From Octopus vulgaris (lineage: Eukaryota): 64,000 nt of DNA. This document shows positions 7,971 to 63,278 of this stretch, one piece after another. Made by a program: the position numbers and the translations under genes. Below the pieces are notes generated by a model. That model was not told the origin of the DNA. It ran no database searches and saw nothing but the letters and a program-made list of their open reading frames with translations. The stretch covers positions 47,554,001 to 47,618,000 of the forward strand of contig OX597820.1 of the NCBI GenBank assembly GCA_951406725.2, read 5' to 3'. The stretch's first letter is position 1. Every line of letters starts with the position of its first letter.

Positions 7971-8603
7971 ATATAGGAATGGTCCTGATAGGCCATTCGA
8001 CTCACTAGAAAGAGCAGCCAAACTCAAACCGCTAAATAGTTGTAATTCTGAAATTGGAAGAGAAATAAAAACATTTACCCCTTTTCATCTCTGGACTATA
8101 GGTCGAATGGCCTATCAGGTCCATTCCTATATTGTTGAATGTATATTATATAGTCTTTGACTATTTTTTCTTTCTCACTAGACCGCTTGTAGCGGAGAAT
8201 TTTTTCTAGAATTTTTTTGCTACTCTGATATTTATTAATTAATGATTTTTTTAGCTAATTTTGAAATTAAATCAGCAGTTTATATCTGCAGCACAGAAAA
8301 CCGCTCGGTAGCGGTGGATTTTGAAAATTTAGAGCATATTGGCTTGAGGCTTCCTTGCTGTAGCCTCGTGGACATATTCTCGTCCTAGGCTTCTCTGCTG
8401 ATGAGACACGCCAGTTGTAAGCAAATTTAATTTAATCTAATTAATTTGTTTACCTAAGTTTGTCGAAACTATGCATAGTCCAGAGATGAAAAGGGGTAAA
8501 TGTTTTTATCTCTCTTCCAATTTCAGAATTACAACTATTTAGCGGTTTGAGTTTGGCTGCTCTTTCTAGTGAGTCGAATGGCCTATCAGGGCCATTTATA
8601 TTG

Positions 8604-10384: not shown

Positions 10385-11305
10385 TGTGTTTTGGTATTGG
10401 CAACATGAATGACAATGGTCAGAGACTACTTGAATTTTGCACATACCATAACCCGTGCATCACCAACACATTCTTTGGCAGCAAGACATCCCACAAGGCA
10501 TCTTGGAGACATCCAATATCTCAGCACTGGCATCAGCTGGATCTCATCATTACACGAAAATCCTTTCTGAATTCTGTTCAACTGACCTGTAGTTACCCCA
10601 GTGCGGATTGTGACATATATCATTCACTAATATGAAGCAGGGTGAGGATTCTGCCTAACAAAGTCCATCACTCCAAGAAAATGGGCAGACCACGCATTAA
10701 CACTGCCAGAACCTCGGACCCTACAGTGCGAAAATGTTTTGCTGTTTCCATCAAGGTTGCCCTCAGTAGCTGCCCAACACCATCTGCTGAAAGTAGGTGG
10801 AATTATAACAGGAAAGCTTTGTATACCACATCAATAGATACTTTCGGCATGAGAGAAAGGCAAAACCCAGATTGGTTCAGTGCTGGGCTCTCAGAGCTGG
10901 AAACAGTTATCGAAGCAAAGTGTGCAGCTCTCATGCAATACAAAAGTGATTCTTCTACAAAGTCACTCGAAGAACTCAGAAAGGCAAGAAATAAAACCCA
11001 ACTGACTGCCAGACGCTGTGCAAATAGGTATTGGCAGGAAATCTGTCAGAGTATCCTGTCAGCTGCTGACAGTGGCGACACCCATGGGATGTATGCCGGT
11101 TTGAAGAAGGCCCTCGGTCCATCCGTAACCAAGTCAGCTCCTCTGAAATCAACTACTGGAGATCTCATCAAGGACCAAAGCAAGCAAATGGATAGATGGG
11201 TGGAGTACTACCAGGATCTCTACCCACGGGAGACCACGGTAGCTGAGGCTGCAATCGAGGGTGTCAAGATCTTGCCAGTCATGTGTGAACTTGACAGTCT
11301 GCCAT
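10385..11305 (+). mobile_element. RTE-clade LINE fragment (APE endonuclease C-terminus and linker), pseudogenised
   Basis: FGIGNMNDNGQRLLEFC..ITNTFF..SWRHP.SQHWHQLDLII..SADCD..HSLI, then an in-frame stop at ~10633, continuing to QMDRWVEYYQDL. It is truncated before the RT domain. Confidence 0.9.
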
Positions 11306-11339
11306 CTATCTATATATATATATATGGCAGACTGTCAAG

Positions 11340-11404
<65 letters not shown>

Positions 11405-11409
11405 ATATA

Positions 11410-12726
11410 TATATATAAAACCCTAATGGGAGCCTTAACTCCCAAATTTTAGTCATTTCTTTTTTGATCCAAAACTAGGTCAAAAGTACTGAATGAATCT
11501 TTATGAAATTTGGAAATTATATTCTATGCATAAGGGCCATAACCCCCATGACAATTCATATATTTTTGCTATTGAGGAAATTTTAACCATAGATATTAGA
11601 CACAAATGAAGTAATATTTATAAAATTCAATCTTCATACAAGTTATAAAGACCCCACCATGGGAACTTAACATCCAAAATTTTGTCATTTTATCGAAGCA
11701 AAAACGAATACAGTTGTGCTCTTGGAAGCTGTAGGGTTACCCGAGCATAAAAGTTGAGCATTATTTGTAATTCAATGGTACAACAGTGTAAGAGTTTGCT
11801 TTGGCATACACATACATTGTGATTTCTGCAATGTGGTGCATAAATTGTCAAGTAAATGAGAGGCACCTTTGCCTCCACTGACTCAGTTGCAAAGTGTTGA
11901 GTAAAGTTATTTGATTGCAGACTTCCTTTCAGTCTTTTTATTATCACTCGGTCACACATAGCCCCCAGATGGTAACATTGATTTCAAGGCCTTCCCAGAT
12001 GAGTGACTGGTTATTCAAAGACATTTATAGATTGTAAATTTATTCTGTCCAGTTACATATCAGTATAGTGGTCATTTGCAAACTCCAACTTTCATTTCTC
12101 CTTAGCCCTCACGTCACACAGTTGTTAATGTTTATTTCATTTGGGTCACGTCCTTCCAATTGCTATAGATTCGTAATGCATCTTACGGCTGTGCCTGTCA
12201 CCTGGGTGGTGAGGAATCCTACATTGGGAGTGGTAACGACTAGGGTAGGGTAACTGACTGCTTATTGTGATCATTCGTCTTTTGGTTTCCTGTAGCTTTG
12301 CTTTCTTTTACAAACCCAGTAAACATATATTTCCTATTTCAAAGAAATTCAAACAATATATATAAGACCCAAGTAAAAAAGATTCTCAACAATTCAACTT
12401 CTCTGGTTGACATTAAGATGCCCACCCCCTACAGGGGCCTTAACTCTCACATTTTAGAGCTCTATGACCTTCATTTTTCAGGGGCAAAATCTTTTAAAAA
12501 GGTTCAATAAGACTGGAATTTTGGAATATGCGCATAAAAATCAGTAGTATGGGATATATGTGGCACGATTACAATTTTTGGGGGCTGTGTAAAGAGGGAA
12601 ATAACCCTCATCTGCAATTTTGATGAAATTCGAAACATAGATATTCCAGTTCATTAGAGAAAATATGACAGAAAAGTCTAATTCTTCAATTGTATGTAAC
12701 ACGGGCAACGCCGGGTATCTCTGCTA

Positions 12727-12780: not shown

Positions 12781-13193
12781 ACTACCCTTATTTTCCAGAA
12801 AAATGTGTCGACACATTTTTCCGCAAAATAATGGTAGTTTATCCTGTTCATGATATATTATTAGCATTATCCTGCGTTTGAGAATAAAGTTATTTCCTTA
12901 TCTTTCAATATATCTCAACGCTTTTAAAGTAAACTCTCTTTATTTTCATCGTAATTTGAATTTAACGTCTCATAAAGCTAGATTTATATATCCTAAATTT
13001 GCAGAAGAATTTGTTGTTGGGTCAGTTTAGCTTAAAGGTAAAGCACTACGACGCGTAGGATATGAGTTCGTGTCTCATGGCTGGCCGCCGACACATTTTC
13101 CTGCAAAATATTGGTAGTTTATCCTGTTCATGCTACATTCTTTGCATTGTCCTGCGTTTGAGAATAATTACTTTCATCGTAATTTGAATTTAA
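12780..13193 (+). mobile_element. (TA)n-flanked partial-tandem element (280-bp period) containing a tRNA-like segment
   Basis: 12810-12888 is repeated at 13090-13167. The segment 13019-13089 has an A-box-like tagcttaaaggt and a B-box-like gagttcgtgtctc. Confidence 0.6.
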
Positions 13194-27445: not shown

Positions 27446-27610
27446 TAACAATAACAACAACGTCGAAAAATACCTTAGGAATGAGAACCCAGGTTCGAAA
27501 TTGCCCCAAGACACCTGATGAAAGCTGAAGGGTATATCAGCCGAAACGTTGTGTTAACAATAAACAATATGAGGACAAATATCCGTCAATTGTAAATAAT
27601 ATAAATAATG
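27231..27610 (+). mobile_element. SINE-like element: tRNA-like head, (AAT)n spacer, hammerhead-bearing tail
   Basis: A-box tggcgtagtgg (~27238), B-box-like gagttagatccc (~27281), (AAT/GAT)n at 27303-27460, hammerhead at 27510-27555. Confidence 0.7.
27510..27555 (+). ncRNA. Minimal type I hammerhead motif (Penelope-type, palindromic stem III)
   Basis: gacac-CTGATGA-aa-gctga(agggtata)tcagc-c-GAAAC-GTT-gtgtt. An AACGTT palindrome replaces stem III. Confidence 0.75.
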
Positions 27611-27792: not shown

Positions 27793-28930
27793 CAGCGTGC
27801 GGAGACGGTATTTGAGGACTTTTTATGGTTTAAAAAAAGACGCTTAAATAATAACAGAAAAAAAACTTTATAAAAATAACATATAACATAAACGTAAAGC
27901 TAAATTATCAGTTTAAGAATTTCATTCATTCAATAAAACCACCATAAGCATCAATAACTGCCTTTATGCGGGGTCGAAGTCGTTTGCAAACTCGGATTAA
28001 GTGGTCCTAGTTCATATTGGATATGACTCGAACTATGGCGGCTTTCAAAGGATCTTTGGTACTATGGAAATATCCATACGTAGTAGTCCAGTGGACTGAG
28101 ATCTAAAGAATTAGGAGGCCAAATGCTGGGGCTGATGTGATCATGCAAATTGTCAGCCATCCATTCTTGTGGCATTTGAGCCTTGTGTGATGGTGAAGAA
28201 TCTTTTTGAAAGACATAAGGCCTTTCATTGCATACACTGTTGAACCAAGGCTTAACAACTTTATCCAGAACCTCAATATACGCAGCAGCATTCATTTTGG
28301 AAAAAGTGAGGAGGTATTGCATGTCCATTCCTAACAACAATTTTGTGTGCCTCAGGAGGTCTGCACATAGCCATCTTCCATTTCTTCTGTTAGTTTTCTG
28401 GTCCCAGTCAAAGTTTTTCTCATCTGAGAAAAACCAAATCACACCATCTTCTAATAGAGTTTTAAGTTTGGTCAACTGTCTTTTGGATCTGATTAAACAG
28501 ATTTCTTTTGATTTTTTCTGATACGAATTGACCTCTCCTCATCACGTAAGATTTGTATCCGATGTCTTCATGCACAACATTTCGGATTGCTTTTCCTGAC
28601 ACACGAAATTTTTTGCAATTGACCTCACTGATTTTCCTGGATTGTTTTTCTTAACTTCCTGAATAAATTCAGGTGCCCTGATAGAAATAGAGGGTTTGGA
28701 AGTTTTTTTTTACGTTTTCATACAGGCAATGCACTTCCATCTCCTTCTTCAATTCACACCGTATCTTGTGGACAAAAGATCTTGCAACTTTCAGAAAACG
28801 AGATATTTCTAAATCACCATGCTTAGCCTTCAAAGTCACAATCACATCATGCCTTTTCATTTCATTAATAAGCATAGGGCCTTTCATTGTTATTTTCTGT
28901 AATAGAAGTTCAATAAAACTTAGTCAAATA
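27793..28930 (-). mobile_element. Tc1/mariner-superfamily DD37D (maT) transposon, decayed
   Basis: FFSDEKNF..YVFQKDSSPSHKA..WPPNSLDLSPLDYYVW, with 37 residues between the last two Asp. An HTH-like N-terminus is in ORF 28669-28887. There are frameshifts and an internal deletion. Confidence 0.85.
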
Positions 28931-43748: not shown

Positions 43749-43856
43749 CCTTCCTCGCTCCCTACCTCTCTTTGGTTTTTTCTGTGTATGTGTAGGTACA
43801 GATACACACTTTAAATCTAACATCACGTGGGTATTGGTATCACATACGCATATATG

Positions 43857-43893
<37 letters not shown>

Positions 43894-44084
43894 ATACTAA
43901 GCAATAAAGGGTTTAGCAACGAATTGCCTTACCACAGACCGAATTTAGAAATAGCAGTCAAAGAGTTATAGCTATTTCTTCTACTAAAAAGGAGATCTCA
44001 GTAAAAAACACAGCAATTGGAAGGCAGACACAAACAGGTAAAAGAGAATGAATTGACGGCAATCTATCATACAATTTTAAGTTA

Positions 44085-44184
44085 TCTACGGACGCACGTT
44101 TCGAAATCAAGTTTTTAGGAAAGCATGAGAATTAAATATTAAATAATTCTACGTTACCCAAACTTCTTTTCTCTTCAGCGTAGA
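44085..44184 (-). ncRNA. Type I hammerhead ribozyme, unit 1
   Basis: Minus strand reads tctacg-CTGAAGA-gaaa(69-nt stem II arm)tttc-GAAAC-gtgc-GTC-cgtaga. Predicted cleavage is between 44091 and 44090. Confidence 0.9.
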
Positions 44185-44679
44185 ATACTATAATCATAAG
44201 TGATTATATATTGAATTTTGAGATACTAGAAGGCACCAACTCAACTCAGTATCAGAGCGAGCTAGAATCCGCAACTAGTATCACCAAACTCAAAGTGTGA
44301 ATGAAAGGATTGTGTCACTAGCCCCTTCCCACCCGCGTGTAGCCAAAACAAGATGCTATGGTCATCTACTGAGATAAAATATGGTTATCCGTAATAATGA
44401 AGGGTGAAATTAATTAATTTGGAATAATTATCAATTACACCAAGTAGTCTTCGGCATGTAAAAGCCTCATTCGAGGAAAATTTAAGTAATACTAAGCAAT
44501 AAAGGGTTTAGCAACGAATTGCCTTACCACAGACCGAATTTAGAAATAGCAGTCAAAGAGTTATAGCTATTTCTTCTACTAAAAAGGAGATCTCAGTAAA
44601 AAACACAGCAATTGGAAGGCAGACACAAACAGGTAAGAGAGAATGAATTGACGGCAATCTATCATACAATTTTAAGTTA

Positions 44680-44779
44680 TCTACGGACGCACGTTTCGAA
44701 ATCAAGTTTTTAGGAAAGCATGAGAATTAAATATTAAATAATTCTACGTTACCCAAACTTCTTTTCTCTTCAGCGTAGA
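44680..44779 (-). ncRNA. Type I hammerhead ribozyme, unit 2
   Basis: Identical to 44085-44184, offset +595. Confidence 0.9.
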
Positions 44780-45274
44780 ATACTATAATCATAAGTGATT
44801 ATATATTGAATTTTGAGATACTAGAAGGCACCAACTCAACTCAGTATCAGAGCGAGCTAGAATCCGCAACTAGTATCACCAAACTCAAAGTGTGAATGAA
44901 AGGATTGTGTCACTAGCCCCTTCCCACCCGCGTGTAGCCAAAACAAGATGCTATGGTCATCTACTGAGATAAAATATGGTTATCCGTAATAATGAAGGGT
45001 GAAATTAATTAATTTGGAATAATTATCAATTACACCAAGTAGTCTTCGGCATGTAAAAGCCTCATTCGAGGAAAATTTAAGTAATACTAAGCAATAAAGG
45101 GTTTAGCAACGAATTGCCTTACCACAGACCGAATTTAGAAATAGCAGTCAAAGAGTTATAGCTATTTCTTCTACTAAAAAGGAGATCTCAGTAAAAAACA
45201 CAGCAATTGGAAGGCAGACACAAACAGGTAAGAGAGAATGAATTGACGGCAATCTATCATACAATTTTAAGTTA

Positions 45275-45374
45275 TCTACGGACGCACGTTTCGAAATCAA
45301 GTTTTTAGGAAAGCATGAGAATTAAATATTAAATAATTCTACGTTACCCAAACTTCTTTTCTCTTCAGCGTAGA
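45275..45374 (-). ncRNA. Type I hammerhead ribozyme, unit 3
   Basis: Identical to 44085-44184, offset +1190. Confidence 0.9.
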
Positions 45375-46341
45375 ATACTATAATCATAAGTGATTATATA
45401 TTGAATTTTGAGATACTAGAAGGCACCAACTCAACTCAGTATCAGAGCGAGCTAGAATCCGCAACTAGTATCACCAAACTCAAAGTGTGAATGAAAGGAT
45501 TGTGTCACTAGCCCCTTCCCACCCGCGTGTAGCCAAAACAAGATGCTATGGTCATCTACTGAGATAAAATATGGTTATCCGTAATAATGAAGGGTGAAAT
45601 TAATTAATTTGGAATAATTATCAATTACACCAAGTAGTCTTCGGCATGTAAAAGCCTCATTCGAGGAAAATTTAAGTAATACTAAGCAATAAAGGGTTTA
45701 GCAACGAATTGCCTTACCACAGACCGAATTCACATGAGTATATATGCACAAACACATGCATATATATATATATACATATATAAATAGATATGTAGATATA
45801 TATGTGTATGTATATATGCATATATGTAGATAGATAGATAAACAGACAAAAGACGTCCGAATTGCACATATACGCTCACAAATATCCTCGTATATATTCA
45901 CCATTACATACACATATACATACACCCACACAACACATACATACATACATACATACATACATACATACATACATTCATACGTAAATATTTATCCATACAC
46001 ATATATTCATATTTACATACATACATACATACATACACACATACATGCATACATATACACATTCATACATATATATATTCTTGCATGCATGCATTCATCC
46101 ATCTACACATACATGCATGCACAATGTAGTGTTGTCGGAAGACATCAATGTTACTCGGAGTTTCACACACATTCACACGTAAGATAGATGTGTGAATCTT
46201 CAAAATTTTCTGATAGAATATACCTTCTAAACTTACTGGTTTTCGATGAAATCCAAACTACTTCAGATTCACTGATTATTTTACTTAAAATAATAATTTC
46301 TACCGTTTGTACACACACACACACGCTACCGCGCGCGCGTG

Positions 46342-51329: not shown

Positions 51330-51850
51330 AACTTAGATAAACTTGGATATGTTTCGACGAAAGATTGGTCCAGGCCATATCTAACTTAATAGCACCATTA
51401 AGTTAGATAGGATTATCTAAATCCTGTTTAAGTTTTGTTTATGGTTCATTCAAGTAGTGAGTTCTTATTGAGTGAGTTGTATCCAGGTATGGGTGGCTTA
51501 TCCGGTATTCCTTGAAGAAATCTGTCCAGACTCCGTTTAAAGGTGATGGGATCCTTTTCCTCTTTGATCTCTTTCGGGACAATGTTAAACAGGCAGAGCC
51601 TGTTGAGGAAAAGAAATTGTGTCGCAGTGTACTTATATGTTGTGATCCTGAATTGGGCAGGGGTCCCAGCCTTGGATGAACTTTGAAACTAATGTTCAGG
51701 TCGTTTGGGCAAAGTTGGCGGTATATTCTCCACATCGTACAAATGATGTACCACTCGCGGAGGCGCTGGAGAGAGTAGAGTTTCAAGGCTTTAAGGCGGT
51801 CCCAATAATCGATATCAGTCATGCCTTCAATTAGTGAGTGCCATCTGGGG
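51330..51850 (-). mobile_element. 3' end of a CR1/L2-group LINE, decayed
   Basis: IEGMTDIDYWDRLKALKLYSLQRLRE.YII resembles the post-RT motif Y.ERL..L.L.SL.RRR. It is followed by a 3' UTR shared with 36424-36490. Confidence 0.8.
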
Positions 51851-52289
51851 TGATTCAATTCTCGAGATGTATGACCAATCTAGCTGTAATTCTCATGATG
51901 GGTAAATCCGAGGTCACTCTCATGGATTATTAATGTTTTCGGGAGTGTAAAGCAGAATACGCGGCGTTGCATATGCAACTGCACATATAATGTGCAGTAG
52001 AAACAAGTAATTGTAGTGTATGACTAACTGTTAAATTAAAAGAAAAATTTAAAGATGTACCAGTCCTCGTAATCGTTGTAATTGTTTGGTAAATGTGAGT
52101 GTTTGCGTATGCACACACAGACAGATAGACACACACATGTTGCACATACATAAATACATACATACATACATACATACATACATACATACATACATACATA
52201 CATACATACATACATACATGCATGCATGCATCAATACATACATACATGCATGGTGGCTGCCCCCTCGTTATCGAGTATGGCCATTGCAC

Positions 52290-61310: not shown

Positions 61311-63278
61311 TGCAGTGGATAATTATCGGTTAATCTCCTGTCTACCCTTAATGTAGAAGTTAATGACAGGAATAATATCTTATTATGTGTATGATTTCCT
61401 GAAAATGAACGACAAGCTGCCACTGGAACAGAAGGGATGCAGGGGGCAAAAGCCGAGGGACAAAGGATCAACTTCATTGGTTGACAGAATGGTGCTGAAC
61501 GACTCTAAGAAAAGACATTCTAATCTGAGTATGGTGTGGATCGATTACAAGAAAGCATATGACATGGTTCAACATTCTTGGATTTTAGAAAGGCTTGAGT
61601 TCGTACAGGTGTCTGATAACATTCTAAATCTTATCAGATCAATGGAGAACCAGAATACAATGCTAATATCAAGTGGAGAATTTTTGACGAATTTTTGACA
61701 TCAGGAGAGACATTGCTGTGATTTGTGTGATACTCCTCACATAGATATTATGGAAAGTGATATCGGGATATACCTTGAAAAATGAAGGAAAATTAAGATA
61801 CCTGTTATATATGGATGGCTTAAAAATCTTTGGGAAGAGTGAACGTGAAATAAATGGTCTGGTTTTAAGAGTGCAAATATTCAGTCAGGATATCGGGATG
61901 GAATTTGGGATTAAAATGTGTGGCATGCTCATCATAAACAAGGCATAGTAGAGTTATCTGATGGTGTAGAACTGCCCAACAGCGAGAGAATCAAGGATGT
62001 TGATATGAGTGGATATGAGTATTTGGGTATTTTGGAGTTTAACGAAATCAAGGAGAGTGAGATGAAGAAAAGCTTTAGACAGAATAATTCTGAAGAACCA
62101 AATTAATTGTGGAGAGTAGACTCAGTGGAAGGAACAAGATCGGAACAATGAATACATGGGCTGTCTTCTTAATGCGACACGGGACATGTGTTATTAGGTG
62201 GACAAAAAACGAGCCAGAAGAAATGGATAGAAAAACTAGCAAAGTGATGACAATGAACAAGGAAATGCACCTTAAAAACAATATCGATAGACTACCTTTG
62301 CTTGTTGCTGTTCGAAATAGCAACATGACATCTAGTAAAAATATGATACACCAAAAAACATTAAAAAAACTAGATGGGGAACAAAGATTGAACAACTGGA
62401 AAATGAAAGCAACGCATGGTCAATACCTCAGAAAAAGGAAAAGAAAAGACGAGACCAACACCAGGCGGTGTCTAAGGAAAAGTGATCTGAAAGGCTGCTG
62501 CACTGAAGCATTGATTGAGGCAACGCCAGGAACAAGCTCTGAGAAATAGATAAGATAAGGAGAGTGAAATACCTCCGTTGTAGGGTGTGTAGTAGCAAAA
62601 ACGAAACAGTCTCACATATTGTGAGTGAATGCAGCAAGTTGTCTCAAAAAGAATTCTAAAGGAGGCATGATAACTTAGCTAAGTTTTTTCCCTGGAGATT
62701 GTGTGAAAAGTACGATCTTGAAAGAACACATGGATGGTACGAGCATAAACCAGAAGGCGTCACCGAGAAAAAAATGGTATAGGCACACACCAGAAAAGGT
62801 CACAGAAAATGAGAAAGCAACCATACACTGGGATATGTGAATACACATAGATAGAGAAATTAAGGCCATTAGGCCAGATATAGTTGTCAGAGATCACCAA
62901 GATAAAAAAAATGCTTTCTAATCGATGTTTCAATAACAACAGATGACAACGTTTGTCTAAAAGAAACGGAGAAACTTTCAAAATACAAAGAGCTGGAAAT
63001 AGGTGTAACTCGAATGTGGAACCTAAAATTAGAAACAATTCCTATCACTGTAGGTGCATTTTGTATGATAAAAAAACATTGAGACAAATACATAGCAAAA
63101 ACAACAGGACAAGTATATATAACACAGAAAATAGCACTACTAGGCACCGCACACATCCTACGTAAAGCACTTTCAATACAGTAACAATAAGAGCATCACA
63201 ACAAACCGCAGCACATACCCAAGGTACACAGAACCGCGCTCGGTAGTGCAGTGAAAGCACGTGATAAAAATAAGACTA

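Follow-up and report, generated by a model that had tools for sequence, protein, structure and literature searches.

The non-LTR retrozymes of metazoans are dispersed, tandemly arranged units without open reading frames (ORFs), each with a type I hammerhead ribozyme and a GC content below 45%, and they co-occur with Penelope-like elements (PLEs). Their units span 51-972 bp, and one of nine predicted frog retrozymes was cleaved in vitro (Li et al. 2026, 10.64898/2026.07.22.740005). A life cycle combining RNA circles and PLEs has been proposed, though not demonstrated (Cervera and de la Pena 2020, PMC7229834), while the model of Li et al. (2026, 10.64898/2026.07.22.740005) takes a retrozyme to share homology with a PLE pLTR of its own genome and the same authors consider the retrozyme mechanism to be still open. 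The insertions of PLEs include tandem and inverted copies and tails, and are biased towards microsatellites (Craig et al. 2021, PMC8557442; Arkhipova et al. 2013, PMC3846280). Their reverse transcription is initiated internally at two sites and both target strands are extended, and in the case of the anole PLE the hammerhead is dispensable, with uncut RNA serving as the main template in vitro (Frangieh et al. 2024, PMC11167929).

A window of 64,000 nucleotides of the Octopus vulgaris genome (contig OX597820.1, positions 47,554,001 to 47,618,000, forward strand; all positions below are those of the window) contains a tandem array at 43891-45730 which, judged on its sequence, belongs to a new family of this known class, with a probability of about 0.9 that the array is a non-LTR retrozyme. 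The initial annotation had termed it retrozyme-like, which is in keeping with its ORF-less tandem units, conserved hammerhead, dispersal and the lack of a match to a PLE pLTR in the loci examined. It shares with the metazoan non-LTR retrozymes the ORF-less tandem units with a type I hammerhead in each, the low GC content, the dispersal, the co-occurrence with PLEs and a unit length inside their range, but differs in its helix II of 60-70 nt, its strict (TA)n targeting and in that no homologous pLTR was found; furthermore, the RNA and circles reported for those retrozymes are, for the present family, predictions from DNA sequence. Two start windows and inverted arms, as described below, have no published description among these retrozymes in the texts consulted, and the word 'inverted' does not occur in the main text of Cervera and de la Pena (2020, PMC7229834). 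Non-autonomous Chlamys PLEs such as MRC1 are also multicopy in head-to-tail orientation and biased towards microsatellites, but their 3' end resembles that of autonomous partners and their clade is without canonical hammerheads (PMC8557442). No published report of hammerhead retrozymes in octopus or other cephalopods was found, although the supplements of retrozyme papers may list some, nor was one of this family or of such footprints (subscription journals and Repbase lying outside the scope of the search), and the main text of a 2026 octopus repeat annotation makes no mention of hammerhead or ribozyme.

Organisation of the 595-bp tandem array

The array comprises three units of 595 bp (43891-44485, 44486-45080 and 45081-45675; minus strand), followed by a partial fourth unit of 55 bp (45676-45730; minus strand), whose end at 45730 may represent the point at which copying stopped. 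In a self-comparison of the window at a lag of 595, positions 43890-45135 match 44485-45730 with a single mismatch at position 44042, where unit 1 differs from the identical units 2 and 3. The first unit abuts a (TA)n tract (43850-43890), the likely nicked target from which cDNA synthesis was primed. The longest stop-free frame in a two-unit stretch encodes 57 aa, and the GC content is 35%. The initial annotation of near-identical, ORF-less units lying against (TA)n is thus borne out, and the near-identity of the units and the youth of the family are in line with the recent insertion it had suggested. It is exceedingly improbable that the tandem copies are an assembly artefact: the units are 99.8-100% identical and the array is known from the assembly alone, but unit 1 has a difference of its own, all three units carry an allele (44319, 44914 and 45509; plus strand) that is private to this insertion among 97, and dozens of loci display the same architecture with their own alleles. 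Unit positions on the plus strand are denoted by q, with q1 at 43891, 44486, 45081 and 45676, and the term arm is used for head-to-tail sequence that continues without a change of orientation.

The hammerhead motif

Each unit encodes a type I hammerhead on the minus strand, consisting of stem I, CUGAAGA, a 69-nt helix II, GAAAC-GUGC-GUC and the closing strand of stem I. Three consecutive motifs (44085-44184, 44680-44779 and 45275-45374; minus strand) were found, where the working definition of a non-LTR retrozyme asks for two or more in a row, all intact as had been annotated, and the placement of C17 at 44091, 44686 and 45281 agrees with the cut positions predicted earlier (44091/44090, 44686/44685 and 45281/45280). 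The features of type I are all present, namely the CUGANGA and GAAA core, a UH cut site and three helices with an open helix I, the latter being 6 bp in length and helix III near-palindromic. The match to the Rfam Hammerhead_1 model (RF00163) spans exactly 44085-44184, with all 45 model positions aligned and the core and cut triplet intact. Its score of 21.2 bits (E 0.018) falls below the gathering value of 34 because the long helix II, with 65 nt in place of the 10-nt helix II interior of the model, is penalised, and the array hammerhead was not picked up when the whole window was scanned at the gathering threshold.

The isolated ribozyme is predicted to fold no better than shuffled sequences (z -1.3), the 595-nt monomer better than shuffles (z -5.7), and the hammerhead-constrained fold lies 2.1 kcal/mol above the minimum free energy. 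Across 28 sequences from the window family (A) and a related family (B), 98.9% pairing was observed over sixteen tested pairs, a value reached by 0/500 shuffles; the middle of helix II, where the register shifts between families, was left out of this count and is predicted to fold as a long bulged hairpin in each family. Compensatory pairs occur in helix I (U-A/C-G) and helix II (A-U/G-C), while helix III is invariant, and since the sequences are related, this covariation amounts to two events rather than 22. Helix III reads ACGUACGU in most older copies and ACGUGCGU in the window array, and both versions are predicted to pair with themselves (self-duplex of -8.8 or -9.8 kcal/mol), as expected of a double hammerhead (PMC4209133).

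Genome-wide distribution and related families

A search of the genome with the unit yielded 1833 candidates, of which forty were scored, and one 22-mer of the unit has 512 exact copies genome-wide. The array in the window is one insertion of a dispersed, young, ORF-less and hammerhead-bearing repeat family. Family B, with a unit of about 600 bp, is 79% identical to family A, while family F (554 bp; 59% identity) has a U3-A8 core and a 27-nt helix II. The ORF-less unit has been kept in all three families despite this divergence to 59-79% identity. A core of roughly 200 nt over the unit junction (44386-44589, repeated at 44981-45184; minus strand) is common to families A, B and F and is kept in more distant relatives, and is a candidate recognition region for the reverse transcriptase (RT). 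Other, unrelated hammerhead families in the genome have a helix II of 44-77 nt. The initial annotation considered the unit longer than those of known animal retrozymes and the very long stem II atypical; however, neither is exceptional, as 595 bp falls inside the reported range of 51-972 bp and helices of 44-77 nt occur in several unrelated hammerhead families here.

The flanks of the family loci hold further hammerhead families, many of them with a 44-77-nt helix II and often as inverted pairs (L080:164-287, L142:1407-1507, L145, L170:1000-1287, L143:4783-5103, L032:4230-4320 and L111:1821-2001), and the genome seems to be rich in retrozyme-like families. Within the window, a second, unrelated type I hammerhead (60-nt helix II, 6-bp helix I and palindromic loop III) is located at 8388-8490 (plus strand), and a minimal hammerhead of the PLE pLTR type, without loop III, at 27505-27560 (plus strand). 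A weak tRNA match (31.6 bits) at 13021-13086 (plus strand) is possibly the head of a tRNA-derived SINE, and open frames at 10636-11418, 28062-28538, 51439-51879 and 62094-62549 resemble LINE or Tc1/mariner fragments.

Insertion footprints

The arms of the family begin at restricted positions. In a sample of 54 insertions, biased to long copies, 78/91 arms begin in q1-8 or q484-504, i.e. in 29 of the 595 positions, and in a second, less biased sample of 54 loci, which was drawn from the first 100 listed 22-mer matches and overlaps the former, 69/78 start within q1-14 or q484-505. The starts coincide with TA or ATA words. Start cluster 1 corresponds to 44483-44499 (unit positions 593 to 14; plus strand), the window array itself starting at position 1, and cluster 2, where insertions likewise end at TA/ATA words, to 44379-44395 (unit positions 489-505; plus strand). 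While 80/91 arm starts in the long-copy sample abut (TA)n, this is true of only 12/91 far ends, and the far ends are scattered over the unit. As the starts are fixed and adjoin (TA)n, we infer that the plus strand is the cDNA and that the hammerhead (minus) strand is the RNA sense of the array. With (TA)n on both flanks of the insertions, any target-site duplication is hidden.

Inverted arms occur in 33/54 insertions of the long-copy sample and 23/54 of the less biased one. They join head to head, mostly bluntly or with an overlap of 1-6 nt, and all of the junctions (36/36) are different. Because both outer ends are fixed starts, two priming events fit better than self-priming. Fold-back symmetry of the inverted junctions was not significant, with five of 36 within 20 nt compared to a shuffle mean of 2.7, and accessibility as the sole selector of start sites was rejected, many other UA words being predicted to be unpaired. 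The same geometry of starts, TA targets and inverted arms is found in families B and F. The initial annotation proposed a genome-wide check for circular permutation: the copies do vary in their ends, yet their fixed starts rule out random permutation, and the non-integer copy number stems not from random entry into a circle but from fixed internal starts combined with random stops. Separately, short reiterated stretches are present at some arm ends (arm junctions of L043, L169 and L093), which suggests repeated re-priming or slippage of the RT.

The fixed 3' ends, variable 5' ends, tandem and inverted copies and microsatellite bias are those of PLE-type insertions. The available accounts of EN+ PLEs likewise describe two internal RT starts, AT-rich or (TA)n targets, head-to-head inverted arms and a hammerhead upstream of the starts; the octopus family differs in having no ORF and in the spacing of its starts (about 100 nt, compared to 30-40 in PLEs). 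Furthermore, the anole PLE starts without homology (PMC11167929), whereas the starts here lie at TA microhomologies of 1-4 nt.

Haplotypes, arm lengths and the template

Eighteen informative sites were compared among 97 insertions. Discordance was observed in 8/1295 comparisons within arms and 5/1131 between opposite arms, while 31.7% discordance was found between insertions. Fifty rare alleles are present in all overlapping copies of their insertion, with 31 derived from two divergent insertions and nineteen from thirteen others, twelve of the latter nineteen occurring in both arms; a further 81 are singletons and six are partial, being found in more than one copy of an insertion but not in every one. 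Since the units and both arms agree, each insertion carries one haplotype, derived from one molecule or one donor. An origin of the all-copy alleles in A-to-I editing is not supported (6 T>C and 7 A>G among the nineteen, with the two divergent insertions and their 31 alleles set aside), and a recurrent A/G difference at unit position 100 was left out as an apparent artefact of homopolymer alignment. The partial alleles (L049, L019, L036, L043, L044 and L189), four of six of which read T on the cDNA strand, speak against a single, flawless monomer circle; multimer templates, variable reading of a damaged base or gene conversion could account for them.

The alleles also bear on the proposal that solo copies are inserted and then expand locally by unequal crossing-over, as modelled for vertebrate retrozymes (Li et al. 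2026, 10.64898/2026.07.22.740005). Divergence within the same arm (0.22%) is slightly below that between opposite arms (0.28%), and in L189 an allele is restricted to the two units of a single arm, as this model would have it; however, multi-unit arms have rare alleles in common with the inverted arm, none of the 81 singleton changes is shared, and the lengths of the arms obey the same stop rate as truncation within the unit, so that such expansion is strongly doubted. Arms with at least one, two, three and four passes number 68, 20, 5 and 1, respectively, matching a constant survival of 0.31 per unit, and the rate of stops inside the unit, ~0.002 per base, predicts the counts of multi-pass arms. 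These geometric lengths fit a template without an end.

Most passes continue across the predicted cut site. Exact stops at q199, which adjoins the predicted RNA 5' end at q200, were nevertheless found in 3/92 passes compared to 0.36 expected (P 0.006), and a fourth pass breaks and jumps at q200. A genome-wide pattern search of the 512 copies, overlapping with the sample of 92 passes, caught eight copies, of which six had stopped or jumped at q199-200, where no more than 2.0 were expected (P 0.017), while a control site of the same context showed two stop events genome-wide, making the cut-site excess a modest one. This hints that some templates were cut and unligated, the alternative being a pause of the RT at the helix.

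The same element and PLE enzyme could also operate on a linear multimer, an uncut transcript of a genomic array, with the hammerhead cutting only rarely and insertion proceeding independently of circles. Uncut RNA is the dominant substrate of the anole PLE (PMC11167929), most passes cross the cut site, and two of the six partial alleles (L019 and L044) agree with both arms having been copied from a template of two units. Arrays copied in this way would, however, shrink with each generation, yet arm lengths are geometric up to 4-5 units; no pile-up of ends at a transcription start was seen, none of the 36 inverted junctions is shared, and the many haplotypes are each homogeneous across units. 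Among the forty scored candidates no second locus carries the full variant stretch of L019, although donors may be lacking from a single assembly. A linear multimer is thus considered rather unlikely, and a circular template is favoured, though not proven, by the footprints.

Penelope-like elements as candidate partners

Searching the genome for GIY-YIG domains gave 6136 candidates, 150 of which were scored, with sixteen located in a 781-aa frame. This frame matches RT, just under the Pfam cut-off, and GIY-YIG, and contains a CX4CX2C linker that is typical of Neptune or Nematis elements. Seventeen outer ends of this PLE, in 15/16 loci, all lie at (TA)n, with two starts about 40 nt apart, and inverted arms are present in two loci. 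Young, intact, TA-targeting PLEs are present in the genome, and a PLE enzyme is a plausible partner of the retrozyme family. Retrozyme copies are found within the terminal TA tracts of PLE insertions (L019, L101/L065 and L140/L244), consistent with a shared target. One young PLE (L054:744-5960; G000:C6:133343243-133348459) has pLTRs of 504 bp and two frames that overlap: the first, of 479 aa, has no clear match in Pfam, and the second is the 781-aa RT and GIY-YIG frame (G000:C6:133345125-133347467), which lies in the -1 frame and has its own ATG. This overlap recurs in L052, L053 and L060. Canonical PLEs have been described with one ORF.

The unit itself shows no homology to the pLTR of the PLE with the 781-aa frame, and its core none to the pLTR or tail of the PLEs in forty GIY-YIG loci (of the 6136 candidates). 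A tblastn search with four PLE proteins across 228 partly overlapping loci found PLEs as neighbours only, with TA tracts or other sequence lying between the matches and the unit and no ORF contiguous with it; in these loci the unit is not accompanied by an RT and GIY-YIG ORF between pLTRs, as an autonomous PLE would be. For PLE families A, B, C and others, blastn, profile and tblastn searches gave no match contiguous with the unit, which was accordingly rejected as their pLTR, and the PLE families examined carry their own, different hammerheads or 3' ends. The concern raised in the initial annotation, that the unit might be merely the pLTR of a PLE, is thus not borne out in the examined loci. 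It could still be the pLTR and tail of an autonomous family not yet found, the arrays being 5'-truncated copies: the architecture is PLE-like throughout, frog retrozymes are often homologous to pLTRs (10.64898/2026.07.22.740005), and the search extended to 150 scored GIY-YIG candidates and forty loci. Given that unit runs into unit for up to five passes without an ORF, that all three families are ORF-less, and that the PLE matches stand apart from the unit, this is improbable.

Proposed mechanism of mobilisation

The full scheme, a retrozyme mobilised by a PLE, probably via circular RNA and with the circle included, is considered likely, if less firmly so than the class assignment. A minus-strand read-through transcript would be cut at successive hammerheads, probably as double hammerheads, into 595-nt monomers which, by analogy with other animals, may be ligated to circles. 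A PLE RT/GIY-YIG protein would then nick (TA)n on one or both strands, and each 3' end would prime cDNA synthesis by annealing to a UA within either of two fixed windows, which lie some 200 and 300 nt downstream of the cut site. The RT would proceed around the template, stopping at each base with a constant probability of ~0.002 and producing the 0.1-5 units per arm seen in the footprints. Finally, the cDNA end would be joined to the other flank, or two cDNAs head to head, the latter giving the inverted arms that are observed. In a more specific version, which is possible but tentative, a single ligated circle would be copied by rolling reverse transcription, and a PLE dimer would use that same molecule to prime from both strands of the cut (TA)n. 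If true, one mechanism would explain the tandem, tailed and inverted structures of PLEs, and the rare cut-site stops would mark unligated monomers.

Conclusions

The youth of the family means that its insertions can be read as footprints, in the form of start sites, a single haplotype, a constant stop rate and cut-site stops. With these footprints and a candidate intact PLE protein in the same genome, the question of how retrozymes are mobilised, and the circle-plus-PLE model in particular, becomes a bench test with a named template, target and enzyme, for which an in vitro PLE assay exists (PMC11167929). The family also appears to extend the retrozymes to a cephalopod host.
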